Below, one piece after another: positions 49,987-64,000 of a stretch of 64,000 nt of DNA (position 1 is its first letter; every line of letters starts with the position of its first letter). Made by a program: the position numbers and the translations under genes. The notes beneath the pieces were generated by a model. The model worked only from the letters and a program-made list of their open reading frames with translations, was not told the origin of the DNA and searched no databases. The stretch is taken from contig JBHLMN010000018.1 of assembly GCA_048938105.1 (NCBI GenBank), positions 1 through 64,000 of the forward strand. Reading direction: 5' to 3'. The stretch is from Promethearchaeota archaeon. Its GTDB lineage: Archaea; Asgardarchaeota; Heimdallarchaeia; Hodarchaeales; Hodarchaeaceae.

Positions 49987-52900
49987 TTATTCCTCTTCAC
50001 CAAGTAATTCTGTTGTTCCATAAATGTTTTGATAAGATAGAACAATAGTAGAAACAAATTTTCTTATTTCGAAGGCTGATTTTTGGATTTTTTCCTTTTT
50101 TGAGGGATCTTTATCCATAATCACATGAAAGGAGTGTACTTGATCTTGTATTTCATCTTGAAATTGGTTTAACAATGGAAATACGTTTTTATGAATTAAA
50201 ATATTGAGTGTGAGATTCTCTTGGCCTCCACGAGCTTCAGGCCTTTCTACTGCAAATCCGAAAGACAGTACACTAGTTCTTATACCCTCAGCTAAAATAA
50301 AATCGAAGTTAGATGGAATTTCCTCGTCAAAATTTTGGCCAAATCCAGTCCCACCAAAAGAGCGGTCTGAAAGTTCTACAAGTTTCGAATAATTATCCTT
50401 TAACAGCTCGGGTAATATGATAATAGGGATGGGCCCATGCCTCTGGTCAAAGAAAGAAACAATAACACCGAGTGTGTGGTTATCTAGAGAGTTTATTACT
50501 TCATTAGGATTGATATCAGCGATTTTTTGTAGTACAAGTTCTTTATCTAAACCTACAAGCTCTGGTTTGCGTATGAACTTGATATAAACGATTGAACCAA
50601 CGAAAATCACAAATATAATAACACCTGCAATTAAAAGAACCCATTGAGGCAAGCCAGGTGATTGGAATCTGAAAGTTTGATCAGGTAATCCTGTATTATC
50701 AAAGGCATACTCATTAATATTTCCATCACCATCTCTAGTCGATATCCGATAGTGAATTTCAATATCTGATTGGTTATGCTGGAAATCTACTGTTACTGAA
50801 TATAAAAAGACATTATCAGATTTATTTTGAAAGATCATTTTAGAATGATGCAGTTCTGTTTGCAGAACAGTAGCCCCAAGTCCAGCAGTACCTTCAGTTT
50901 CGCTTACAGGTACGAAATAATAGAAAAGTATAACTTCTGAGATATTTGAGCCAAATTCTTCCACTTCTGCATAAAAAATAAGACTAGTGGGATCATACTC
51001 ATCATCCTTTATGAACCAAGCATCAATGACTCGTGGAGGAGATTTATCCAACAGAGTAAAAATATAATCCTTCTCATTAGTAATATAAAAAACATCAGAA
51101 TATTCAACAGTAGTTCTGACTGTAATTCTCATTGTTGCATTTGTATTAAGAAATGCAAAATCATGTAGCGTATAAGGTAGAATCCAATAACCAGTAGCAT
51201 TAGGAAAGTTTGTTATCGTATTCACAATTGGTACAGTGGACTTGTTCAGAAAAATTTCAAACCTAACATCAACAATCTGATTATCGAGAGAATCATGTGC
51301 TTTTACAGCAAATTGATATAAGCCTTCTGATTCTGTGTAAATATACGAAACAAACTCTTGAATTGCTGGGCGACTTTCAATGAATATTGACATGCTAATT
51401 AATGATCCATTATCGAATCCATCAAAAGGTCGAATCTGCACAGTCCAATTTTGACCAGGATGAGTTTGATCTTGAGGAATCAACCTCAGATTGTCATATT
51501 GCGATTGATATGAACCATTAACGTACCAATTAAAGAAAGATAAGTCACTATCTCCTAGATCGATATCTAAGAGCGTTAAACTTACATTAATATCTTCATC
51601 TTCAATCAGGAAATCTGGAAATTCATTTCCAACTAGCTTAAGTATTTTAATCTCAGGAGCTTTATTCACAATAAAAATTTCTTGTGAACTATAATTCAAT
51701 GACCAATTTTCACCGTCATCAGTGATTTGGACACGAGCGAACCATGATTCGCCCTTTGAAATCTCCGTAGCTGGAATTTCTTCCCAATTATCGTATTCAG
51801 GTTGATAAGTACCGTTTTTGAACCAATAAATGAAGGTATATTGCCATAATATGGGATCTTGATCTGGATCTGTGTTGTTAATATCTTGAATGGGATCAAG
51901 GATTAAGCTTGTGTCTGCATAAGTTTGAGTCGCATTCTTGTTACTACTCCATATTGTAACTTCTGTAATAATCGGAGGACTATTTAAGATAGTAATCGGA
52001 TCAGAAGTATATATGATGCTATAATCAAAACCATCAAAAACTTGTATCTCGATTCTCCAACTATCCCCTTTAGTAGTATTTATAGCAGGAATCATAGTAG
52101 AATTTTCAAACTTATCTTGCTCTATTCCCTTGTTGAACCACTTAATAAAGGCTACATAGGAGTCTACAGGGTCGTCATCTTCGTCAAAAAAATCCCAAGA
52201 TATGTTTAAAGAATCAACTGTATATGCAGGAAGGTCTAATCCGTTTGGTTGGATTTTTACATCATATACAATAGGTAATGAGTTAACAATAATAATATTT
52301 GAGCTAATGTTTGGTTCTATTCCCCAATTTATACCATCAAAAGGTTGAACATAGACAGAAATATTATCCCCTCTAGAGAAGGTATTACAAGAAAGACGGA
52401 TTCGTACATGAATCTGATTTCCAATTTGATCAAAATCTATTATAGTTCCATTTTCTGTGTCTGGGATAGGGGTACTATTATTGTACCATAAAATTAGTGT
52501 TTCTGACAGAGTAATATTATCTCCATCATAATCAAAATAAATAAACATTAAATCTAAGTCCATATCCGATTTTGTTTCTAGGTTAACCTCATAGAATTCA
52601 GTAATTATGGGAGGACTATTATTTATTATAATAGCAGGTGAAGTTACCCAGTCACCAAAATCGCCCCAACGATCACGTGGCCTAACACTAACGTTCCAAA
52701 TGTCTCCACGGGATAAATAGCTAATTGGTACAAAAAATGATGATATTTCTTCCACTAAAGTCCCATTTCTAAACCATTTATATTCAGCATCAGTGACTAA
52801 ACCATTTTCATCATATTCAATATCATAAAGGGCATTACTTTCCCCGGAATCGGGATCCAAAGTAGTATAATTGACATAAAGGACTTTAGAGGCATAAAAA

Positions 52901-55900
52901 ATTGTTGTAATATTATTAGGGCCATGAATATAAGGGGATCCATCAATTGTTGGAGCAGCATTATCGATGATTAAGTACACTCTATATTTTTGCCATATTT
53001 CACCTAGGCTTTCCCCATCATGGGGAGTAATTTGGACGGTGATATAATCTCCTGCAACAAAATATGTGCTTAATAAGTCCAAAGTTCCATTGACTTTATG
53101 TATTTCATCTCCATTTCTTTCAACGGTCCAATTAATCTTAGTTCTTGCTAGGTCTAAGTCATCACCATCAGCATCATTAATATAGGGATCAAGAAGAACA
53201 CTAATATCATCTAATGTGTTTAATCCTCCAGTTAATGTTACATCATCAAGTGACATGAGCGAGTTTTGAATAGTTATTTTTTCTGATGTATAATTTCCTG
53301 ACCATTCCGTTCCATCAAAGACACGAATAACAAAAGTCCAATTTTCTCCCTTTGCTGTATAACTTGAAGGCACAGAAGTTTTATTATTTAGACTCGGTAC
53401 TTCCTTAGTTCCATTTTTCCACACAATGGACAAATTAACCATAAGATCATTATCAATATCATGATAATATTCAATATAGTTTGCAATAAGGGTATTTGTG
53501 GTATACGCGGTAGTGGATGGATATATTTCAACTGATAATAGTTCAGGAGCCGTGTTTTCAATCATTATCGTGGCATTGGTACTCCAATTGCCATAGTCTC
53601 CGTAAATATCTTGTGGTTTCACTTCTACTGTCCAGTTGTCTCCTTTAATAAGAGGAGCAATATCAAGAATTTTAAATGTTGGTCCATCAAATTGAGATTG
53701 ATAAATGTCATTTCTATACCAACGGAAAATGGTAATCCCCTCATTATCTCCATCAGGGTCAGAATAGGTATAGCTTACATTTAAATACCCACCAGCTACC
53801 TGATTGCTAAGTGTTAAATTCACCATTAGTGCTTCTGGAGGTTTATTTGGAGGTACTCCAATACTCATGGTTGCAGAAGAAATCCAGCCACTAAAGTTCG
53901 TTCCATCGCTTATATTCATTTCAACACGCCATAGATCATTATTAGTTGTGTTTCCACTCTTAATTACCAATGTATTGGTATAATTAAGCACCCAACTTCC
54001 CAAGCTATAGATATACCACCTTATTTCTAGTGACTCATTTGGATCTGAATCAGCGTCAAAATATGTATAGTTTGCAATCAAATCATCAGTAGACAATATT
54101 TCTGCAGGTATTGTATTATTATTTATATCTACAATCAAAGTCGGTGGAGTATTTCCAATAGTAATTTGGTTAGAAACAGTAAATACTCCAAAATTCTGCC
54201 CATCATACGGAGTAATAATATAATAGAAAATATAACTCTTATTTGTGGCACTAGGTGGTACCTCTGTTTGATTTTCAAAGTTTGTTAGCTCAAGAAATCC
54301 AGAACCATTCCTATAATCACAATACCATCTGATCAAAGACCCCTGTTCTATATCACTTGGATCAGGATCAATCCAATCATAGGAGGCAGTTAGAGTATTC
54401 CCTGTGAGAGGATCACTCGGATAAATAATCACATTCTTTGTGGCAGGAGCAGAATTCTGAATTGTAATAATAATTTCTGAAGCAATCATATCTCCAAAAT
54501 CCTTCCCATCTCGAGGTTTTACTGTTGCATTCCAAATTTCACCCCTCACTAGCGCACTTGAAGGAATTTGTGTTTCATCGTTATATGCTGGTTGTAACTT
54601 CCATTCTGTTCCATTCCATAGATACCATCGAATCTCTGTTCCAGATTCGGTATATCCTTCAGCATCGAAGTAATCATAAAGTAGATATAGAGTGTCGTTG
54701 CTAGTAACCGGTAATTCCTCTGAAAATGCATCTCTGGATAAGGATACATTCTCAGCAATAGGTACGAGATTCGGAGCATATCCTGGATGTTCAGATGAGG
54801 TGTATGTATTTCCTTTAGTATCATTCACCTTAACCACAAAGTTAATAGATCCTTCAATCATGACAAGAGTATTATTCATAAACCCTGATGTTGTATTTTG
54901 CATTATTGCCCATAATGCACTTAAATCTCCCATATTCTCATGATACGTTACGTTTACAATAACAGTATTGATTTTGCCCCAGGAATCAGAAACATTTGCT
55001 TTAAAAGTACCATATGGCCCTTCATCAGTAAAAAAGGCCCAATCATCAACATTTGGGGCTATTGTGTCATAATCGAAGGTGTGGTTGCCCTCAATAGAGG
55101 CTTTTTTTAGAGTGTTATCGAAAGTATCAGATGCATTAACAATTTGATAAGTATAATAATCATCGTAGTTAATTGAGAGAGGTTGATAAATCCATATGTC
55201 GCTAGCATTCTTACTCATATCAACTTCTATAATTCCGTTAAGTAACAACTTTACATTAGTTACTGTTGAAAATGAATCAGTGACATTTGCCCAAAATGTT
55301 GGATTTCCATCACCTGGATCGTCAACACCAAAGCTATCAATTACAGGAGGAGTCTTATCGGTATAAAGTGTTAGTGCATGAATATAAATATCCTGTTCTA
55401 TACTTTCGGCATAGATTTGTATTCTATTTTCTGAATCGATTCCACTACCACCCATCAACCATTGGTCACCACCTACATCATAACGAGGAAATGTCCAACT
55501 TTGGCCATATTTTCTAGCTATATTCTTATAATCTGCGTAACCACCGGTCGATTCATACTGTAAAATGACTCCTGAAGCATTAGAAGGTACAGTAGAATAA
55601 CTGTCTAAGTCTCGTATAGTCCATCCTGGGTATGGTGCTGAAATACTATCCCTGTTTGTGTCTAACCAGTCAATGCTATCCTTTACTTCTGCGATTAAGA
55701 AAAATTTGGCTGCCCTCCCACTAGTAATGTAATATTCAAATTGGTCATTTGCATCGATTTTGACGAAAAAAACTCCACAATTATATTCTTCCCACTCTCT
55801 AAATGTCATAGAATCAGTAGAACCAACAGCTCTGACCAATATTGTTGCATCTTGATCAGATGTTGATTGTCCAAAAAGGATAACTCCTGTTGTAGTGTCA

Positions 55901-57729
55901 TCTACGCCACTAATAGTAATCTTATTCCATGATGAGTCAGCAGTTAAACTTCCTAAATCAGAAGCAACTCTTTTAAATTGTGGATCCGAGCCTACAGTAT
56001 AACCCATAACATAAAGTCTCGAGGATGCACTTTGTCGCCAAGTATCAATATATTTATGTTCACTAAGCTTAACTATTTGCATTCTCCACGTTTCTTCTTC
56101 AATTCTACAATAATTAGAGCCCCCATTCATGAAATCATTAGTATCCTGTGATCCTCGGGCAACAGCATGACGAACATAAATACTATCTTCAACCCAAGTT
56201 AATATTACACCTGTGGCATTGCTAGGAATGCTGTCATCTGATAAATCCTGTTGTACCCAAGAACTATATGTCATCCCTAAATTCACTTCATCTGGGCTAT
56301 CAAGCCAAATAAATCCAGAATCATCCCCTAAAACCTGTTCTGGACCTTCTACAATCAACAAGACTGAGTCAATCTCCCACCAATCTTGAATACTATCAGT
56401 AGAGGTTGTTGAACCACCAAATTTAATCGTAAATGTTGGACTAGTAAGTGTAACTGTGAAATTATTCCATGTGGAAGCTGTTAGATCTGAAGTAATCAAC
56501 TCCCAAGAGTCCCCATCCCAATAAGTTACATTAATATCTTCAATTCCTCCAAATGAGCCTGTTTTGATACATAATTCCTCTGCAATACTTCCAGAGTCAT
56601 AAACTCCAGCAAATTGAGCTTCTAGATCTAATTGATAATCAGTTCCAGTTCCACCACCAGAAAAACCTGAAGGAACATCAGTGGAAAATGTGCCGCCACT
56701 ACCAGCCTCAACACAATTGGATGAGCCAGCAGAGTCAGTTAAATCATTGTCAAACTCATAATAATGGACTAGATTGCTTTCCGAACCTGATAATTTAGTT
56801 TTATAATCATTCTGAATAGCCGAAAGGCTTCTATCAGTGTCATAATAGCGAAAATCATCAACATGCCCATCGACTTCATAACCACTGTTTCTGGAGTTCA
56901 TAATATTATTTTGAATGACTCCAATAGTGCTTACTGCACCTGTCCATGTTGAAGTAGAAGCCACCTGAGAAGGTTGATTATTCTCATCTCCCTCGTAAAT
57001 GTAAATAGTATTCGCAATTTCATCCCAAGTTACAGCCCAAAAATACCATGTATTAGTCGTAAAACCATGAGTATAAAGTAATGCATCAGTTACCCCCCAA
57101 TCTAGATGTAATTCCGAATTTCCAATTCCACCAAATCTAATCTCAAAATCAGTATGTTGACCCCAGAAACGACCACTAATAGAGTCAAACTTTAACCACA
57201 GAGAAATTGTGCCTGATGTTGAACCAAAATCTGTTAAACCACCAGAACCAACCTGTAAAAAATTCCCAAAACCACCAGGAGCATCCCAAGAATGCGTGTT
57301 GCCACTGGAAGGAATTACTTCTGTCATGTTATCATAAATTGAATCTGTTGCCTGTATATTACTAAACAAGTCATGGCTGCCTAAATCAGGACTTGAATCA
57401 ACATCAGATGTCAAGTCTACATAGTCTTCAATCGTTCCTCCTCCTGGTCCTTGAATTTTATGATGAATTCCAATTGAAAAATTATTATTTGCTTGAAAAT
57501 TAATTTCAGAAGATTCAAGTTCTATTCGAGGTGACCTCATAAGTCTTGATACTGCCTGATTGCTTCTATTTTCCTCTTTTGATATTCTGAAACCTCTTAA
57601 TAGCTCCAACGCAATCGAATTTGAATCTTCATAATTTACTGTTTGGATTGGAATAGAAAATGAAACAATATTAAGTACAAAAAAACAAGTAAAAAAACCG
57701 AGAATGAAATTTTTATGGCGTATTAACAT
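49987..57729 (-). CDS. Giant single-pass surface protein: LamG domain, about 11 cadherin/Ig-like repeats, TM and cytoplasmic uDENN/longin-like domain
   Basis: Signal peptide; LamG (GTISLW...WYFWAVTWD...GHVDDFRYY); NxxP/DxDxD/PxDG repeats; TM WVLLIAGVIIFVIFVGSIVYI; tail IVSFFDQRHGPIP...ARGG. Confidence 0.85.
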   Translation of the reverse strand: MLIRHKNFILGFFTCFFVLNIVSFSIPIQTVNYEDSNSIALELLRGFRISKEENRSNQAVSRLMRSPRIELESSEINFQANNNFSIGIHHKIQGPGGGTIEDYVDLTSDVDSSPDLGSHDLFSNIQATDSIYDNMTEVIPSSGNTHSWDAPGGFGNFLQVGSGGLTDFGSTSGTISLWLKFDSISGRFWGQHTDFEIRFGGIGNSELHLDWGVTDALLYTHGFTTNTWYFWAVTWDEIANTIYIYEGDENNQPSQVASTSTWTGAVSTIGVIQNNIMNSRNSGYEVDGHVDDFRYYDTDRSLSAIQNDYKTKLSGSESNLVHYYEFDNDLTDSAGSSNCVEAGSGGTFSTDVPSGFSGGGTGTDYQLDLEAQFAGVYDSGSIAEELCIKTGSFGGIEDINVTYWDGDSWELITSDLTASTWNNFTVTLTSPTFTIKFGGSTTSTDSIQDWWEIDSVLLIVEGPEQVLGDDSGFIWLDSPDEVNLGMTYSSWVQQDLSDDSIPSNATGVILTWVEDSIYVRHAVARGSQDTNDFMNGGSNYCRIEEETWRMQIVKLSEHKYIDTWRQSASSRLYVMGYTVGSDPQFKRVASDLGSLTADSSWNKITISGVDDTTTGVILFGQSTSDQDATILVRAVGSTDSMTFREWEEYNCGVFFVKIDANDQFEYYITSGRAAKFFLIAEVKDSIDWLDTNRDSISAPYPGWTIRDLDSYSTVPSNASGVILQYESTGGYADYKNIARKYGQSWTFPRYDVGGDQWLMGGSGIDSENRIQIYAESIEQDIYIHALTLYTDKTPPVIDSFGVDDPGDGNPTFWANVTDSFSTVTNVKLLLNGIIEVDMSKNASDIWIYQPLSINYDDYYTYQIVNASDTFDNTLKKASIEGNHTFDYDTIAPNVDDWAFFTDEGPYGTFKANVSDSWGKINTVIVNVTYHENMGDLSALWAIMQNTTSGFMNNTLVMIEGSINFVVKVNDTKGNTYTSSEHPGYAPNLVPIAENVSLSRDAFSEELPVTSNDTLYLLYDYFDAEGYTESGTEIRWYLWNGTEWKLQPAYNDETQIPSSALVRGEIWNATVKPRDGKDFGDMIASEIIITIQNSAPATKNVIIYPSDPLTGNTLTASYDWIDPDPSDIEQGSLIRWYCDYRNGSGFLELTNFENQTEVPPSATNKSYIFYYIITPYDGQNFGVFTVSNQITIGNTPPTLIVDINNNTIPAEILSTDDLIANYTYFDADSDPNESLEIRWYIYSLGSWVLNYTNTLVIKSGNTTNNDLWRVEMNISDGTNFSGWISSATMSIGVPPNKPPEALMVNLTLSNQVAGGYLNVSYTYSDPDGDNEGITIFRWYRNDIYQSQFDGPTFKILDIAPLIKGDNWTVEVKPQDIYGDYGNWSTNATIMIENTAPELLSVEIYPSTTAYTTNTLIANYIEYYHDIDNDLMVNLSIVWKNGTKEVPSLNNKTSVPSSYTAKGENWTFVIRVFDGTEWSGNYTSEKITIQNSLMSLDDVTLTGGLNTLDDISVLLDPYINDADGDDLDLARTKINWTVERNGDEIHKVNGTLDLLSTYFVAGDYITVQITPHDGESLGEIWQKYRVYLIIDNAAPTIDGSPYIHGPNNITTIFYASKVLYVNYTTLDPDSGESNALYDIEYDENGLVTDAEYKWFRNGTLVEEISSFFVPISYLSRGDIWNVSVRPRDRWGDFGDWVTSPAIIINNSPPIITEFYEVNLETKSDMDLDLMFIYFDYDGDNITLSETLILWYNNSTPIPDTENGTIIDFDQIGNQIHVRIRLSCNTFSRGDNISVYVQPFDGINWGIEPNISSNIIIVNSLPIVYDVKIQPNGLDLPAYTVDSLNISWDFFDEDDDPVDSYVAFIKWFNKGIEQDKFENSTMIPAINTTKGDSWRIEIQVFDGFDYSIIYTSDPITILNSPPIITEVTIWSSNKNATQTYADTSLILDPIQDINNTDPDQDPILWQYTFIYWFKNGTYQPEYDNWEEIPATEISKGESWFARVQITDDGENWSLNYSSQEIFIVNKAPEIKILKLVGNEFPDFLIEDEDINVSLTLLDIDLGDSDLSFFNWYVNGSYQSQYDNLRLIPQDQTHPGQNWTVQIRPFDGFDNGSLISMSIFIESRPAIQEFVSYIYTESEGLYQFAVKAHDSLDNQIVDVRFEIFLNKSTVPIVNTITNFPNATGYWILPYTLHDFAFLNTNATMRITVRTTVEYSDVFYITNEKDYIFTLLDKSPPRVIDAWFIKDDEYDPTSLIFYAEVEEFGSNISEVILFYYFVPVSETEGTAGLGATVLQTELHHSKMIFQNKSDNVFLYSVTVDFQHNQSDIEIHYRISTRDGDGNINEYAFDNTGLPDQTFRFQSPGLPQWVLLIAGVIIFVIFVGSIVYIKFIRKPELVGLDKELVLQKIADINPNEVINSLDNHTLGVIVSFFDQRHGPIPIIILPELLKDNYSKLVELSDRSFGGTGFGQNFDEEIPSNFDFILAEGIRTSVLSFGFAVERPEARGGQENLTLNILIHKNVFPLLNQFQDEIQDQVHSFHVIMDKDPSKKEKIQKSAFEIRKFVSTIVLSYQNIYGTTELLGEEE

Positions 57730-57967
57730 CGAAATCCCTAAATCTTTGTTTAATTGAATTATAATAGTCGTTAAAAATTAGAAGCTCTGTATTATTTGGA
57801 TAGGATAAGTTATTGAAGTAAATTTAGCTTTATATTGTTTAGAATATTATAAGGCTTGCTGAACAAAACCTCCGTATTAAAATATCTATGTAAATTTTAA
57901 TCATCAAACATCCCATTATATCGAGAATTGATGGTCAGCTTGAGTAACGCCTCAATCATCGATTTCT

Positions 57968-60157
57968 TCAATCCAGATCTTTTTCAAGAAGAGCTAAGTA
58001 CTCCTTTAGTTCTCTAGATGTTTGATCTTCTACCACTTCAAATTCAGGTTTTAATACTTCCTTCGGTCTTATTCCTTCTGATTCTGATTCAATTACCTTT
58101 TTTATAGTTTCTTGGATGACTCGTGCTGCAAAATCTAAAGCACCATCTTTATCAATTGGGAGTTGTATCGCTTCCTTAAGAAGCCGCTTTAACTGATCTA
58201 TTTTGATAGATTCCACAACATTAACCTGAGCTATTGGAAATCCTCGCTGCACAAAGTCAATTAAAACTCCTTTCTTGGCTTTATAAACAGTAAACGCTAA
58301 TTGTTCACTATCAGGGAGCATGAGATAATTAGTATCTACTTCAATCTGCATAGGAATTATAAAATTAACAGTTTCAGTTAAATATCCTTGTTCTTTCCGA
58401 CTTCTTTTAGTTGTCACTTCACTGGTAGATTTCAAGGTTTTCTTTTGCAACTGTCTTAAAGATTCGTGAATAATTTTTGTTGCAAAATGCATAGAACCCA
58501 ATCCTTCCTCAAAGAATCCCATATTCTGCATATTAAGTTCATATGCTAATAAATACAGAATTTCATCAGAAGTGATCTTTGATGAGACTTTTGCACTTCC
58601 AATTAACTCTGTTTGACCAACAAGCCCTAAAAAATGAAAAGAAATAATTGCGTTTAAACCTTCATCAACAAGATCGATTTTAAATCCCAACCCCTTGATA
58701 TTAGGAATAGCGATTATCCCGTTGTTCGTTTCAGCCTCTACAGGAATATCAACTTCTGTCAATTCCACTGGTTTTTCTTCAACAATCTCTTCTACAGCTT
58801 CTTTTTTCTTCTTTTTCATTTTTTCTGGGATTAAATATTTCTCTAGTATTTCTTCAATAGACATCTTTGGTTTTTCAGCTATAAAGACCAAACACTTAAC
58901 AAAATCTTCTTCTTTAAGTCGTGATTTTAAATAGGCACCAAAAAGCTGTAAAAGTTTGTCATCGGTTATATTTTTGTATTTTTTATCCCCTTGAGACTTT
59001 TTAATGAATGGTAAATATTTGAAAAAAACATCAAGAAGAAGAGGGATTTCAATACCGATTTTAGCTGCTGTCTCAAAGATAATATCATATCCAGATTCGA
59101 CAATCTCTGTGGCTTTATCAGGTTCAATTCGGAAAAAATCTACGAAGTAACTAATTCTCGGGTTGATTTGAACACTTTCCCTTTTTTCAACTAGTTTTTC
59201 TTCATTTACAACTGATATAATGTGTTCTTTATGTTTTGTCGGCGTAAGAACTGAATCTTGGCCCACAAATTCATCCGCATATGGTTGAGGACTCACATCA
59301 ACATGTGTTAATGTTGTTTCCGAAATAGACTCTTCTTCAGCAGCATTACCCAGGAATATTCCTCCTTGAGATAATGCCTCAGGATCTGTTTTTACAGCTG
59401 ACTCCATCAACCGTTGTAATTTACTTAATATAGCAGGATCTCCAGCCATTTTAGGAGTAATAGTTTCTACAGGTTGATTAGCTACAACAGCTGAAGGCCT
59501 TCGAAGTGTCATTCCAGTTTCATGAAATTCTTCAATCTCACCAATCTCACGCCCCTCAACAAATTCACTCTTAGAGATTTCTGGGATTACAAGTTCAATT
59601 ATTCTTCCAAAAGCGTTGATTACACTTTCTGGACGATAGATTGTAGTTCTAAAGAATTTAAGTGGCCCTTTAGGATATTCTAATTGAAGTTGTTCTTTTA
59701 GCTGTTCATGTATTGATTCATAGTTTGGTGAGTCAACCAAAAGATCGTTCTTATGTAGAAAAACAAAAGTCTCTGTATGAGGAGAATAAGTATTAATTTT
59801 TTCAAGACATGCTTTGAAATATTCAATAGCATTGTTTCGGGAAGTTTTGTTGGCTACATCGATTAAGAATATAAAAATTTTAACACTACTGAATACAAAT
59901 GGGCTAAAACCACTTAAAAAACGCTTCAGAAAGACCTTTTGACCACCTAAATCCATTATGGTTATTGGTGTATCACGAATTGTAATAGACATTCGTTCAT
60001 AATTAATTGTAGCTGAAAGACTGTCAACGTCCTCCGCACGTTGTTTGAGGAAAAATATACGTTTGACCGCAGTTTTTCCTGCTTCAGATAATCCTGCTAT
60101 CAATATTTTGTATCCTAGCTTCGCAGCTAATTCTGCGTCAGAAACCCATTCGCTCAT
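57968..60157 (-). CDS. Rag/Gtr-like small GTPase with long C-terminal extension
   Basis: GLSEAGKT, ATINY, DLGGQ, HKND and TTIY motifs. Confidence 0.9.
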   Translation of the reverse strand: MSEWVSDAELAAKLGYKILIAGLSEAGKTAVKRIFFLKQRAEDVDSLSATINYERMSITIRDTPITIMDLGGQKVFLKRFLSGFSPFVFSSVKIFIFLIDVANKTSRNNAIEYFKACLEKINTYSPHTETFVFLHKNDLLVDSPNYESIHEQLKEQLQLEYPKGPLKFFRTTIYRPESVINAFGRIIELVIPEISKSEFVEGREIGEIEEFHETGMTLRRPSAVVANQPVETITPKMAGDPAILSKLQRLMESAVKTDPEALSQGGIFLGNAAEEESISETTLTHVDVSPQPYADEFVGQDSVLTPTKHKEHIISVVNEEKLVEKRESVQINPRISYFVDFFRIEPDKATEIVESGYDIIFETAAKIGIEIPLLLDVFFKYLPFIKKSQGDKKYKNITDDKLLQLFGAYLKSRLKEEDFVKCLVFIAEKPKMSIEEILEKYLIPEKMKKKKKEAVEEIVEEKPVELTEVDIPVEAETNNGIIAIPNIKGLGFKIDLVDEGLNAIISFHFLGLVGQTELIGSAKVSSKITSDEILYLLAYELNMQNMGFFEEGLGSMHFATKIIHESLRQLQKKTLKSTSEVTTKRSRKEQGYLTETVNFIIPMQIEVDTNYLMLPDSEQLAFTVYKAKKGVLIDFVQRGFPIAQVNVVESIKIDQLKRLLKEAIQLPIDKDGALDFAARVIQETIKKVIESESEGIRPKEVLKPEFEVVEDQTSRELKEYLALLEKDLD

Positions 60158-60444
60158 TAGTCACTAACCTGTAAAGTCATTCATTGAGTCGTTTATTATA
60201 AAATTCTAAAATTTTTCCCAAGTTTTACTCACATTACTTATGATCTGTGATATCGAGATTAAGTACCTAATAAAAATCTTAAGGAATTCTTGTTGTGAGA
60301 AATAATAAGGCATATTAATCTATTTTGATCAGAAGCACTAACAATACAATGAGGATATTTTATATATCGTAGAACAAGTTATTATTACTTGAATTCTAAC
60401 TTACATTTAATCAGCATTTAAAGAAGATTCCGAGGGTTACATCC

Positions 60445-61347
60445 GTGTCAGCAGTAGCAAAACAAAAAGTTCTTTTTATGGGCCTTGGTGCTTCAGGTAA
60501 ATCAAGTATACGCTCGGTAGTCTTCGAAGGAAAATCAGTGGAAGATGTCAAAGATTATAATGCAACGATAAATTATACCCGATCTTCTAAAAGTATAATT
60601 GATAGTGCATTTCAAATTTTTGATTGTGGGGGTCAAGAAGCGTTTATTTCCGTCTTTGTTGGAGAACAAGCGGAATTTATTTTTAGCGATGTTTCTATAT
60701 TAGTTTGGGTCGTAGATGTTTCCAATTTCGATGTAGTTAGTACCTCAAAATTCTATTTTGATTTAGCTGTTAAAAAATTAAGTGAATACTCACCTGATTC
60801 TGTAATTTTTTGTCTCTTTCATAAGATTGATCTTCTACTATTGGATATGAAGGAACAAGTTGTAACAACCATGAAAAGTTATTTTACAGCTGAAGAATCG
60901 TTTAATGTTCATTATCGGGGAACATCAATTTATGACAACTCGATTTTTTTAGCTGTGGGAGAGATGGTACAAACCTTAATTCTAAAAACTACAAAAGCTA
61001 AAACCGTCTCTGAGGCTATTCAGGAATTCATGCAAGCACACAGAGAGTTATCAGGAATCGCAGTTTATTCAGATGATGGATTACCTGTATTTGAGGAAGG
61101 AGAAATGGCTGATCAAATTATTCTTCCTGCTAATCTTTGGCTAACAAATTACGACAGGCTAAGTAATGAGTTTGCTTCTGACATAACTTTTAAAACTACT
61201 TTAGAAACAAATGACTACATTTTTATTTTTCAAAAACTTAAAGGGGAGCTGCTTCTGTCAGGTATAGCGCAAAAAGTTGCTCCACTTCAATATGTGCTTG
61301 TTAAAATGGAACAGCTTGCTGAAATTATAAGCAAGTTATTGCAATAG
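60445..61347 (+). CDS. RagA/Gtr1-like GTPase with C-terminal roadblock-like domain
   Basis: GLGASGKS, ATINY, DCGGQ, FCLFHKIDL and TSIYD; C-terminal GIAVYSDDGLPV. Confidence 0.92.
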   Translation: MSAVAKQKVLFMGLGASGKSSIRSVVFEGKSVEDVKDYNATINYTRSSKSIIDSAFQIFDCGGQEAFISVFVGEQAEFIFSDVSILVWVVDVSNFDVVSTSKFYFDLAVKKLSEYSPDSVIFCLFHKIDLLLLDMKEQVVTTMKSYFTAEESFNVHYRGTSIYDNSIFLAVGEMVQTLILKTTKAKTVSEAIQEFMQAHRELSGIAVYSDDGLPVFEEGEMADQIILPANLWLTNYDRLSNEFASDITFKTTLETNDYIFIFQKLKGELLLSGIAQKVAPLQYVLVKMEQLAEIISKLLQ

Positions 61348-61376
61348 CTGTTTTTACAAAACTTTACATTTCTTTG

Positions 61377-62399
61377 TTAGATATAATGTAAAACGCCATT
61401 CTCGATTTTACCATTCTTAATAAGACCTGCACTTATTAAGCTTACAATGAAATCCTCTATCAACGTTTCAGAGATTCCGGTTTGAACTCTAGCCTCCCCA
61501 AGGTTTAATGGGGACTTTTTCTTATAAGATTGTACAATTAATTTTGCTAATGTTTGTCGTTTTGGAGTAAAGTGAAAATCTAGATATTCATCAACTTCAT
61601 CATAGGTTAGTTGATCGGTAAGGCGAATTCGATAGTGAATCCCTGTTTCTGCTTGTGATATCAAACCAATTTTAGAGAGCATTCTTTGAACAATTAGTTC
61701 ATCTGATATTATTTCTACTTTGTAGAGGGAACCTTTGGGCAATTGTCCTGTGAAATTCTTAACTTGATGAAGCAAATTAACTTTAAGAGAAGGTTTAACT
61801 TCTTCTCGTATTAAGACATTTATCTGTTTGTTTGGTTTGTCTACTAGCATAATTGGAGCACTTGCAGGAACGAGAGCGAGTTCTAAAAAAGGTTCAAATG
61901 TCTCTCTATCAGAAAGATAAAATGACTCAATACCTGTTTCAATGATCTGCAATTTTTCATCAATTTTTTCTAAGAATCCTTTTTCTTTTAGGTCTTCATC
62001 TGTACGTATCTTATACGACCGAATAGCTCTCCTTAAATTTTGCTTAAGAACGCCAACATATTTCACTGTGGAGCTTGAACGAGTTATAACCCAAAAAACG
62101 ACAATTCTTCCAAACTGAGCTATACGAACATCTTGAGAATCCACTGCTTTTAAAGTGAAAATGAATCCAATTGTTAAGAAAGGATCCCGAGGGGTTGGTA
62201 TTGGTCCATAAGAACGAATTTCCCCAACGCGAGGAATATCTGAACTCAATGCGGTTAAGGATTTAATTGCAAGATTGAATCCCTCTTCCTCGGATAAAGG
62301 AGAGGAATTATAGATGTTCTGAGGGCCAAAATCCTCAAAAATGGTTATTATCAATCCATCAGTGAGACTGGTACCTTTTAAAGCATCATTCTTTGACAT
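61377..62399 (-). CDS. uDENN/longin-like protein with C-terminal winged-helix (PCI-like) domain
   Basis: IITIFEDFGPQ...GPIPTP...DVRIAQFGR; C-terminal IEDFIVSLISAGLIKNGKIENG. Confidence 0.6.
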   Translation of the reverse strand: MSKNDALKGTSLTDGLIITIFEDFGPQNIYNSSPLSEEEGFNLAIKSLTALSSDIPRVGEIRSYGPIPTPRDPFLTIGFIFTLKAVDSQDVRIAQFGRIVVFWVITRSSSTVKYVGVLKQNLRRAIRSYKIRTDEDLKEKGFLEKIDEKLQIIETGIESFYLSDRETFEPFLELALVPASAPIMLVDKPNKQINVLIREEVKPSLKVNLLHQVKNFTGQLPKGSLYKVEIISDELIVQRMLSKIGLISQAETGIHYRIRLTDQLTYDEVDEYLDFHFTPKRQTLAKLIVQSYKKKSPLNLGEARVQTGISETLIEDFIVSLISAGLIKNGKIENGVLHYI

Positions 62400-62476: not shown

Positions 62477-64000
62477 CTATTCTTCAGGTTGGTTATCTAA
62501 AACTTGTTGCATTAGCTGATTTACTCTTTTTATCATTTCGGTCGGATCCTGTAAAAGTCCTTCAGCTAGTTCTTGATTTTCCAGTAATTGAAAAGTACAT
62601 GTCTGAATGAGGGGAGAATCTGGTTCTTTTTCAAAAAGGGTTTTTAACAAAGTGATAAGAGAATGATTTGCATTTATTTCCATTATCTTTTTTTGAGGAA
62701 TATAGTTTTCTTCCATGTATTTTAGAACACGTGTAAAAGCAGAAGTTCCACTAGGATTCACAAGTCGACAAGGGCTATCTGTTAATAAATCTGTATAACA
62801 AATGTCTATTATCCGATCTCCCAATATTTCTTTCATGTGAGTAAGAAAAGAGTCTTTCTCAGACTCTTCTTCTTTCTTCTCTTTATCTACTTCTTCTTCC
62901 TCTTTAGCTTCAATAGGTTCAGCTTGATCAATGGGTTTGAATTTCTTTTCTTGAAACTCTTTGACATGCATCATTACAAAAGAATCAACAGGATCAGCGA
63001 AGAGAATGACTTCTTGATCCATCTTTTTGTAGTATTCTAAATGTGGGCTCCGCTTTAGAGTTGTTAAATTCTCACCAAGTAAATACAAAATCTCTTCCTG
63101 TTCTTTAGGCATATGTTTGATATATTCTGTCAAAGTGATAAGTTTGTCCTCTGATTTGGTAGTCTGAATTCGAAGAATCTTAAGTAATTTCTTTCTCCGC
63201 TTTTCATCTTGCGTTATCCCTTCTTTAATAAAGACCCCAAATTGATCCCACCATTCTAAATACTTATCTTCTTCCTCATCAGCAATTTTTTCGAGTTCAT
63301 CTAGTATTCGACCACTAAGAACCTTAGAAATCCTACGAATAGTTCGATCGACTTGAATTACCTCTCTTGAGACATTTAAAGGTAAATCTTCACTATCAAC
63401 GACACCAAAAACGAACCGTAAGTATTCAGGAAGTAAATCCTTTGCTTTTTCTTGAACAAGAATTTTTTTGCTATACAATCGAAGCCCATAATCTTGATAG
63501 CTGTAAGTCATCATCATACGGCTTCGTTGCTTTGGTAAGAACAGAAGTGCTCTGAATTGGATTGGCGCGTCAACACTTAACCTCACACGATGGAATGGTT
63601 CAGTCCAATCTAAACTCACTTGACGATAAAATTCGTTATATTCTTCCTCAGTAACTTCATCTTCTGATTGATGCCAGATAGGAATTTGACGATTCACAAT
63701 TTGATCATCATCAGCAATTCGGATAGGAAAACCAACGAAATCACTGTATTTTTTTACAATAGATTCAATCTTGAACTTATTAGCAAACTCTTTAGCATCA
63801 TCCTTCAGATGAAGAATAACATCAGTTCCTCTTTCAGGTTTATCACGGTAAGCCACATTGAAATTCCCCGATCCATCCGATCGCCATTCAACTCCTCGTG
63901 AATCTTCAGTATAAGAACGGGAACGTACAATTACCTCGTTTGATACAATAAAGGAACTATAAAATCCAACACCAAATTGTCCAATTAAATTTATAGCATC
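62477..64000 (-). CDS. htpG: Hsp90/HtpG chaperone, 5' part beyond the window
   Basis: The frame stays open to 64000 (IGQFGVGFYS); GVVDSEDLPLNVSRE and MEINANH motifs. Confidence 0.95.
   Translation of the reverse strand, partial: DAINLIGQFGVGFYSSFIVSNEVIVRSRSYTEDSRGVEWRSDGSGNFNVAYRDKPERGTDVILHLKDDAKEFANKFKIESIVKKYSDFVGFPIRIADDDQIVNRQIPIWHQSEDEVTEEEYNEFYRQVSLDWTEPFHRVRLSVDAPIQFRALLFLPKQRSRMMMTYSYQDYGLRLYSKKILVQEKAKDLLPEYLRFVFGVVDSEDLPLNVSREVIQVDRTIRRISKVLSGRILDELEKIADEEEDKYLEWWDQFGVFIKEGITQDEKRRKKLLKILRIQTTKSEDKLITLTEYIKHMPKEQEEILYLLGENLTTLKRSPHLEYYKKMDQEVILFADPVDSFVMMHVKEFQEKKFKPIDQAEPIEAKEEEEVDKEKKEEESEKDSFLTHMKEILGDRIIDICYTDLLTDSPCRLVNPSGTSAFTRVLKYMEENYIPQKKIMEINANHSLITLLKTLFEKEPDSPLIQTCTFQLLENQELAEGLLQDPTEMIKRVNQLMQQVLDNQPEE

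Follow-up and report, generated by a model that had tools for sequence, protein, structure and literature searches.

The window analysed here, a 64,000-nucleotide stretch from the 5.85 Mb genome of a Promethearchaeota archaeon (Hodarchaeales/Heimdallarchaeia; positions 1 to 64,000 of contig JBHLMN010000018.1, assembly GCA_048938105.1), carries at positions 49987-62399 a four-gene module that joins a giant surface protein to GTPases of the Rag family. The genes encode a single-pass surface protein, hereafter the receptor (P0001); two Rag-type GTPases, one of a long type (P0002, "P2 type") and one that is Gtr1/RagA-like (P0003, "P3 type"); and a three-domain protein with a longin at its N-terminus (P0004, "LGW"). 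The four adjacent open reading frames (ORFs) claimed in an earlier, sequence-only reading of this DNA are all present and in the orientations described there (Table 1). A functional link between the cytoplasmic tail of the receptor and the Rag pair is highly probable. On the basis of fold and motifs we propose, with a probability of about 0.5, that the tail would be an arginine-finger GTPase-activating protein (GAP) tethered under the plasma membrane, and that P0004 would be a second GAP-type longin, either for the P3-type Rag or as the partner of the tail. The locus displays the folds, motifs, membrane topology and conserved, repeatedly duplicated linkage described below.

P0001 has only two hydrophobic segments, an N-terminal signal or anchor and one transmembrane (TM) helix followed directly by the basic stretch IRK, which places its last 196 residues in the cytoplasm. 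A model of this tail built with AlphaFold2 (AF2) from a 43-sequence alignment (predicted local distance difference test, pLDDT, 91.8; predicted template modelling score, pTM, 0.87) revealed a beta-beta-alpha-beta-beta-beta-alpha core with two helices at the N-terminus and a long one at the C-terminus. In a VIA search of 48,161 representative chains, independent of the Foldseek candidates, the top eight chains were all members of the longin-GAP family (Z 9.5-13.8). The best match was the lokiarchaeal longin 8yqg (Z 13.8, root-mean-square deviation (rmsd) 3.0, 141 aligned); Lst4 scored 11.1, the FLCN complex chain 6nzd_H 11.6, C9orf72 11.2, and chains of GATOR1, SEA, SMCR8 and FNIP2 9.5-10.6. 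The uDENN domain of DENND1A reached 8.7, generic longins at most 8.0, and GAF/LuxR domains about 6.5. Rescoring of Foldseek's own candidates gave Z 12.7 for 8dhb_J, in agreement with the unbiased search, and an Atlas shape search with the tail returned Avl9/uDENN, NPR2, C9orf72 and a Heimdallarchaeota cluster partly annotated with Pfam Folliculin. Compared with FLCN, NPRL2 and DENN structures, as the sequence-only reading had suggested, the tail therefore matches the longin GAPs best and stands above the DENN-type uDENN.

The motifs of the tail agree with this placement. An exhaustive HMMER search assembled a tail family of 153 clusters, in which the domain always lies at the very C-terminus of proteins of ~200-5800 aa. 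The pairing of a Gly-Pro (GP) motif with a loop Arg has been described as specific to GAP longins (FLCN, NPRL2, SMCR8, C9orf72) and is absent from FNIP2, NPRL3, adaptins, TRAPP and DENND (PMC12290439). In the tail family the GP motif is nearly invariant (Gly in 43/43 members, Pro in 42/43), and the position of Arg2500, the candidate arginine finger, holds Arg in 41/43; among 14 Rag-linked receptors from three families, this Arg is present in all 14 and the motif ARGG in 12. Pfam Folliculin matched 13 of the 43 members at sub-threshold level (best E 1.9e-4), while a profile of the tail found no longin among the PDB sequences. The chain ends after the longin and one long helix, and the family members scanned gave no match to Pfam DENN. 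Accordingly, the tail is, by its model, a longin fold of the FLCN/NPRL2/SMCR8 GAP class, for which fold and motifs suggest catalytic activity. The description of P0001 as a giant single-pass protein with a uDENN/longin-like tail stands for its topology and its longin but fails for DENN; "longin" is right and "DENN" wrong because neither the tail nor P0004 has a DENN core, and the label uDENN/DENN protein was rejected for both.

The neighbourhood is strongly conserved. Among the 19 loci with a P0004 homolog surveyed in species-representative genomes, a P3-type Rag gene convergently adjoins P0004 in 16, a divergent P2-type Rag gene then follows in 11, and at least 8 have a tail-bearing giant alongside. 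We further used the tail, LGW and P0003 as queries against 30 relatives, examined the surrounding regions and read 26 P3-like genes by hand; a tail gene lay within ~12 kb of 15 of them and clearly did not for 2, the remaining 9 being on short contigs. The naive chance expectation is ~0.6 compared with the 15 observed, and since related genomes are not independent, the variety of arrangements weighs more than a P-value. Within the genus, the receptor and Rag pair occur in at least six gene orders or orientations, including paralogous copies in one genome: LGW, P3, P2, giant (the window and L015-18, and L050 with a beta-eliminating lyase, L050:529-1656, instead of LGW); P2, P3, giant without LGW (L051, L052); P3, P2 and then a convergent giant (L053); giant, P2, P3 (L054); giant, P3, cysteinyl-tRNA synthetase, LGW, P3' (L055, L014, L019); and LGW, LGW, P3 and P2 followed by a tubulin-like gene, a pair of unknown genes and a tail protein of 400 aa (L056). 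Of all features of the locus, the divergent P2/P3 pair is conserved best. The four-gene adjacency is not due to chance, since the arrangement is found again in other genomes and in paralogous copies. Two genomes (G001 and G017) carry two trios each. The well-supported groups {window, L050}, {L015, L017}, {L051, L052} and {f3/f4} recur in the trees of the tail, P3 and P2, a pattern compatible with the trio having been duplicated as one unit; otherwise the resolution of the trees is limited.

The linkage extends to other families. In f3 and f4 the tail family occurs once per genome, in 6 of the 8 genomes searched, and in 4/4 of these that were examined two Gtr1_RagA genes come straight after the receptor (1460-1600 aa). 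These receptors preserve FDQxxG[PA] in 4/4, the Arg in 4/4 and ARGG in 3/4. The LGW profile gave no match in the families f3, f4 or f5, and LGW is also missing from several paralogous trios. By synteny the universal unit appears to be the receptor with the Rag pair, LGW being an addition in families f1 and f2. Of the four-gene unit envisaged earlier, the receptor-Rag neighbourhood proved strongly conserved, both in the many arrangements of the genus and in the more distant families, but the 340-aa protein is not universal.

Several further observations concern these loci. In one group of paralogs (L056:8420-15982 of G009; also L003, L005 and L007), the Rag pair is separated from the 400-aa tail protein by a gene of the tubulin/FtsZ family (441 aa, Pfam Tubulin 5.8e-19) together with unknown genes of 1140 and 311 aa. 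In f3/f4 a gene of ~240-250 aa stands directly upstream of the receptor on the same strand (L062:15399-16133, L063:8186-8929, L064:7945-8709, L060:10595-11314); of these, the L062 gene was scanned and is Ras-like (Pfam Ras 1.9e-5). Family f2 has an LGW-like gene after a pair of Rag genes (L059). Elsewhere in the genome that contains the window, C52:99774-103479 (L069:7775-11480) holds a tight same-strand cluster of a Rag-like gene (334 aa), a degenerate Rag-like gene (332 aa), an LGW-like gene (273 aa) and another Rag-like gene (309 aa). An MFS transporter and a further Rag-like gene lie upstream of this cluster, with a weakly tail-like 357-aa protein 5 kb further up, and G016 conserves the cluster of four (L057:14983-18823). 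The same contig carries, at C52:34373-68646, three tail-bearing giants in tandem on one strand (8856, 1540 and 1025 aa, the last a weak tail match), with no Rag gene within ~28 kb of the array. A tail fragment of 93 aa is retained alone at L009:11039-11320.

P0004 belongs to a family of 57 members with 39-86% identity, all in Hodarchaeales-type metagenome-assembled genomes. Its AF2 model (mean pLDDT 79, longin blocks 76-89) contains three domains. The first matched longins in the VIA search, with scores of 11.5 for 8yqg, 11.2 for chain 8dhb_J of the FLCN complex, 10.4 for Lst4, and about 10 for both the GATOR1 chain 9o5a_H and the sigma subunits of adaptors, so that the fold alone does not discriminate GAP-type from generic longins. 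Both this domain and the receptor tail are longins in confident models, as had been expected. Residues G25, P26, D90, R92 and G97 were invariant in 40/40 sequences, G25-P26 being the GP motif and R92 lying between beta4 and beta5. Pfam PCI matched 22 of 40 family members. P0004 is most likely a second, soluble GAP-type longin, with its activity predicted from fold and motifs. Its earlier description as a second uDENN-like protein therefore keeps the longin and loses DENN, in the place of which the model has a gelsolin-like domain and a winged helix.

Pfam NPR2, NPR3 and DENN matched no member of the tail or P0004 families, the P0004 profile found no longin among PDB sequences, with the winged helix alone hinted at, and BLASTP of the tail against P0004 returned nothing. 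Hhalign of the tail against P0004 gave a probability of only 2-4%, though with the GP motifs in register. A complex prediction of the tail with the P0004 longin (residues 1-160) scored 0.00 and carries no weight either way.

Both GTPases lie far above the Pfam Gtr1_RagA (PF04670) cut-off of 22 bits. P0002, with 111.6 bits (5e-32), is the Rag-like GTPase claimed upstream of the giant gene on the same strand, and P0003, with 130.3 bits (1e-37), bears out the divergently transcribed RagA-like GTPase. P0003 is closer to Gtr1 (4.7e-28) than to RagC (~1e-11), and P0002 closer to RagA (2.5e-19) than to RagC (~6e-7). The P-loop, DxxGQ and HKxD motifs are intact in both and invariant among orthologs; in P0002, GLSEAGKT, DLGGQ and HKND are invariant in 12 orthologs. 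With these G motifs intact, both are predicted to be working GTPases. The P2 and P3 types of the genus form separate starred clades in the tree. A family profile of P0003 aligns to yeast Gtr1 over positions 3-264 of 300 (chain residues 2-277), into the C-terminal domain, and P0003 appears to fit a Rag-roadblock layout. The 287 bp between the two divergent Rag genes presumably hold shared promoters.

P0002 has a different C-terminal half. The idea that this 729-aa protein is a standard Rag-roadblock was rejected, as no roadblock is detectable in it. After a low-complexity linker comes a helical domain resembling the tail of GatE; the C-terminal part of NCBIfam PRK04028 matches 11 of 12 P0002 orthologs (best 2.2e-10), and PDB chain 1zq1_C matches at E 0.023. 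This C-terminal region of GatB/GatE contacts tRNA. If the assignment is true, a Rag fused to a domain of tRNA-binding type would be a striking link to amino-acid status. Two tandem units, U1 and U2, follow, which align to each other in hhalign at 97.4%; they gave no match to roadblock, longin, Pfam, PDB sequences or the C-terminal domain of P0003. The ESM Atlas provided no usable match for the C-terminal half, of which the Atlas model is poor. Shorter P0002 paralogs (L051, L052; ~560 aa) have one unit. A eukaryote-style A/C heterodimer is not established, both Rags being by their sequences more RagA/Gtr1-like than RagC/Gtr2-like and P0002 having no recognisable roadblock.

The proposed mechanism would run as follows. 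The giant glycosylated surface protein would place a folliculin-type longin directly under the plasma membrane, where it would bind the neighbouring Rag pair. It would then, most probably, accelerate GTP hydrolysis by the Rags through the conserved loop residue Arg2500 next to the GP motif, as in FLCN, NPRL2 and SMCR8. P0004 would have the P3-type Rag as its target and would serve either as a GAP of its own, comparable to GATOR1 and FLCN, each of which serves one Rag, or as the longin partner of the tail. We infer the binding itself, GAP rather than guanine nucleotide exchange factor (GEF) or tether activity, the assignment of longins to Rags, any coupling to events at the ectodomain and the output downstream. 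That the receptor responds to cell contact or glycan binding, as first suggested, is pure inference.

The same linkage of receptor and Rags, with the domain directly under the membrane, would also suit a tail that serves as a tether, scaffold or GEF for a Rag pair without its own lipid anchor, in a role like that played by Ragulator/EGO or the longin GEFs (Mon1-Ccz1, TRAPP, DENN). GEFs and scaffolds account for most longin and roadblock platforms (PMC10933270), and the uDENN of DENND1 and the longins of TRAPP and Mon1-Ccz1 match the tail too, at Z 6-8.8. None of these exceeds 8.8, clearly below the GAP-type longins at 9.5-13.8, and the fact that the GP motif and loop Arg, GAP-longin-specific according to PMC12290439, are strongly conserved also argues for a GAP. 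We consider such a tether or GEF possible but doubtful; tethering and GAP activity can coexist. Rather improbable, in our estimate, is control in the opposite direction, in which the Rags and longins would govern the export, placement, clustering or turnover of the giants and the tail would be their handle. A common handle would suit a tail family found on many ectodomains, in proteins of ~200-5800 aa (up to 8856 aa in this genome) and in up to 11 copies per genome, with fewer Rag pairs, and longins are known to serve sorting in SNAREs and adaptor complexes. However, the conserved GP and Arg signature of catalytic type would be superfluous in a mere handle, and the co-duplication of the trio suggests dedicated one-to-one pairs instead of one machine for many cargoes. 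That the tail is a PAS/GAF-like small-molecule sensor, with its Rag adjacency devoid of mechanistic meaning, seems very improbable. LOV/PAS chains do appear in Foldseek at E ~1e-3 beside the longin matches, and GAF/LuxR ligand-binding domains reach Z ~6.5, but these fall far below the longin-GAP group in the unbiased search, the Foldseek PAS/LOV alignments have rmsd 10-34 A, and both the Pfam Folliculin matches in the tail family and an adjacency kept across families and rearrangements speak against this reading.

A number of points weigh against the tethered GAP. The Foldseek E-values of the tail are weak (best 1.3e-4) and include PAS/LOV chains. Arg2500 and Arg92 are likened to FLCN R164 and NPRL2 R78 by secondary-structure position, not by residue-level superposition. 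A role as GEF or scaffold is commoner among longin/roadblock platforms than one as GAP. FLCN-FNIP and C9orf72-SMCR8 also pair by way of a DENN domain, which both the tail and P0004 lack, and with no recognisable roadblock in P0002 the Rag heterodimer is unproven. In this genome the majority of tail-bearing giants lie away from Rag genes; of the six at E <= 1e-10, only that of contig C28 adjoins them. In the locus of the closest relative (L001, 10001-13142) the receptor and both Rags are absent and LGW stands beside a GMC oxidoreductase, while L002 (5783-10214) has neither the receptor nor P2; the module can thus be dispensed with. A broader version of the tethered-GAP proposal, which we regard as improbable, sees an archaeal forerunner of the Rag switch working outside-in: the GAP tail of the receptor would control the Rag pair, the GatB/GatE-type tRNA-binding tail domain would add the state of tRNA or amino-acid supply to the external cue, and the NPRL2-like longin would serve the other Rag, mirroring the FLCN/GATOR1 split before lysosomes or TOR (target of rapamycin).

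The ectodomain of P0001 contains 71 N-x-S/T sequons compared with 29 expected from composition. Its tandem repeats are possibly Ig-like; ESM Atlas feature matches to Big_9/Ig_2 clusters, at low share, are a weak lead, and Pfam and NCBIfam gave no match to the single sequence, nor to the longin part of P0004. The term "adhesin-like" is therefore plausible only. An assembly artefact was set aside for the giant gene, since an independent assembly (L050) contains a 2571-aa ortholog with the same layout and the same neighbours. The genes are separated by 238 bp (P0001/P0002), the divergent Rag intergenic region and 29 bp (P0003/P0004, convergent). The module is flanked by unrelated housekeeping genes, one of the Hsp90 family and, at the opposite end, one for a GMC oxidoreductase. 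The former (62477-64000, minus strand like P0004; Pfam HSP90 4.4e-107) is cut by the window end and stands 77 bp upstream of P0004; in L001-L004 its place is taken by a gene of 625-651 aa.

Table 1. Coordinates of the module and its features in the window.
Feature	Position	Strand	Remarks
P0001	49987-57729	-	2580-aa single-pass surface protein (receptor); ORF and translation
Signal or anchor			P0001 residues ~7-28; N-terminal hydrophobic segment
Tandem repeats	51340-54762	-	~11 x ~100 aa, P0001 residues ~990-2130; phmmer window-vs-protein, E down to 1e-14 between units
TM helix PQWVLLIAGVIIFVIFVGSIVYIKF	50575-50649	-	Residues ~2361-2385; Kyte-Doolittle maximum 2.95; coordinates checked by translation
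Cytoplasmic tail	49990-50577	-	P0001 residues 2385-2580; predicted FLCN-type longin with extra N- and C-terminal helices
GP motif of tail	50431-50436	-	G2432-P2433 in FFDQRHGPIP; start of strand beta2 (model); codons checked
Candidate arginine finger Arg2500	50230-50232	-	In RPEARGGQEN, beta4-beta5 loop; codon checked
P0002	57968-60157	-	729-aa Rag-type GTPase, P2 type; acidic C-terminal motif
P0002 G domain	59558-60115	-	Low-complexity linker after it
P0002 GatE-tail-like helical domain	58769-59194	-	Residues 322-463; NCBIfam PRK04028 positions 443-585
P0002 units U1/U2	58013-58726	-	Residues 478-715; two tandem ~115-aa units
Divergent intergenic region between the Rag genes	60158-60444	.	287 bp
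P0003	60445-61347	+	300-aa Gtr1/RagA-like GTPase, P3 type, divergent from P0002
P0003 G domain	60460-61014	+
P0003 C-terminal domain	61027-61344	+	~105 aa; a-b-b-a-b-b-b-a pattern, roadblock-like
P0004 (LGW)	61377-62399	-	340 aa: longin, gelsolin-like domain, PCI-like winged helix
P0004 predicted GAP-type longin	61935-62369	-	Residues 11-155; VIA matches over residues 9-157
P0004 GP motif G25-P26	62322-62327	-	Position from model
P0004 Arg92	62124-62126	-	Between beta4 and beta5
P0004 gelsolin-like domain	61659-61934	-	Residues 154-247; gelsolin domains, VIA Z ~9.5
P0004 PCI-like winged helix	61380-61571	-	Residues 277-340; UFL1/DDRGK1 and CSN winged helices, VIA Z ~10

Rag GTPases and longin GAPs (folliculin, GATOR1) form the core of amino-acid sensing in eukaryotes. 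If this pairing of longins and Rags is real, the relationship between Rags and longin GAPs would predate eukaryotes and would have begun at the plasma membrane, on a receptor, and it would provide the first candidate for a transmembrane input to a small-GTPase switch in archaea. The locus and its relatives offer a matched set (a receptor-borne longin, a soluble longin and two Rags) that is conserved, co-duplicated and small enough for testing.

Rag-like GTPases in Asgard archaea are already known (PMC10933270; 10.1101/2024.02.28.582541), as are FLCN/NPRL2-like Asgard longins (PMC12290439; Liu et al., 10.1101/2020.10.19.343400). The GTPase in the FLCN-like operon of Liu et al. is not of the Rag family (10.1101/2020.10.19.343400), gene order rarely pairs GTPases with their regulators (Tran et al., PMC10933270), and the partner GTPase of the reported class of Asgard longins with GP and Arg was left as an open question (PMC12290439). 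The sequence-only reading knew of no characterisation of this architecture, and the literature searched likewise describes neither a receptor-borne longin fusion nor its linkage to a Rag pair; the work behind PDB entries 8yqg, 8yl2, 8zla and 9m28 lay outside that coverage. Among the closest counterparts are the Folliculin/SMCR8-type GP-motif longins of Asgard archaea, which share GP and Arg and include 8yqg, the best match of both the tail (13.8) and P0004 (11.5); as published, these differ in that neither a fusion to giant transmembrane surface proteins nor a linkage to Rag genes is described.

Among eukaryotic systems, Folliculin-FNIP (yeast Lst7-Lst4; GAP for RagC/D, Gtr2; PDB 8dhb, 6nzd, 6ulg, 4zy8) shares with the tail the longin fold (Z 12.7 to 8dhb_J, 11.6 to 6nzd_H and 11.8 to Lst4), the GP at beta2 and a conserved beta4-beta5 loop Arg, together with the sub-threshold Pfam Folliculin matches of the family and the genomic partnership with Gtr1/RagA-family GTPases. 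The tail differs in having no DENN domain and in forming the C-terminus of a giant single-pass surface protein, whereas FLCN is soluble and recruited to lysosomes; the locus is also without an identified FNIP-like partner and without a Ragulator or TOR context. P0004 resembles the NPRL2-NPRL3 part of GATOR1 (yeast Npr2-Npr3; GAP for RagA/B, Gtr1; PDB 9o5a, 9v0j, 7t3a/b, 8adl) in its GP/Arg longin, with Z ~10 to the 9o5a and 9v0j chains, in the order longin, middle domain and C-terminal winged helix, and in adjoining a RagA/Gtr1-like gene. It differs in its gelsolin-like middle, its PCI-like winged helix and a whole-chain rmsd of ~10 A to GATOR1/SEA chains, and the locus has neither a Pfam NPR2/NPR3 match nor a DEPDC5 counterpart. 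Unlike the eukaryotic Rag/Gtr heterodimers on Ragulator/EGO, the two GTPases here are both RagA-like and not A/C, the roadblock of P0002 is replaced by the GatE-tail-like domain and two novel units, and there is no LAMTOR-like set. The likeness lies in two Gtr1_RagA-family GTPases forming a conserved divergent pair, in the Gtr1-like length and C-terminal domain of P0003, and in GTPases that have no lipid-anchor motif and stand beside a membrane protein with a domain of the longin/roadblock superfamily.

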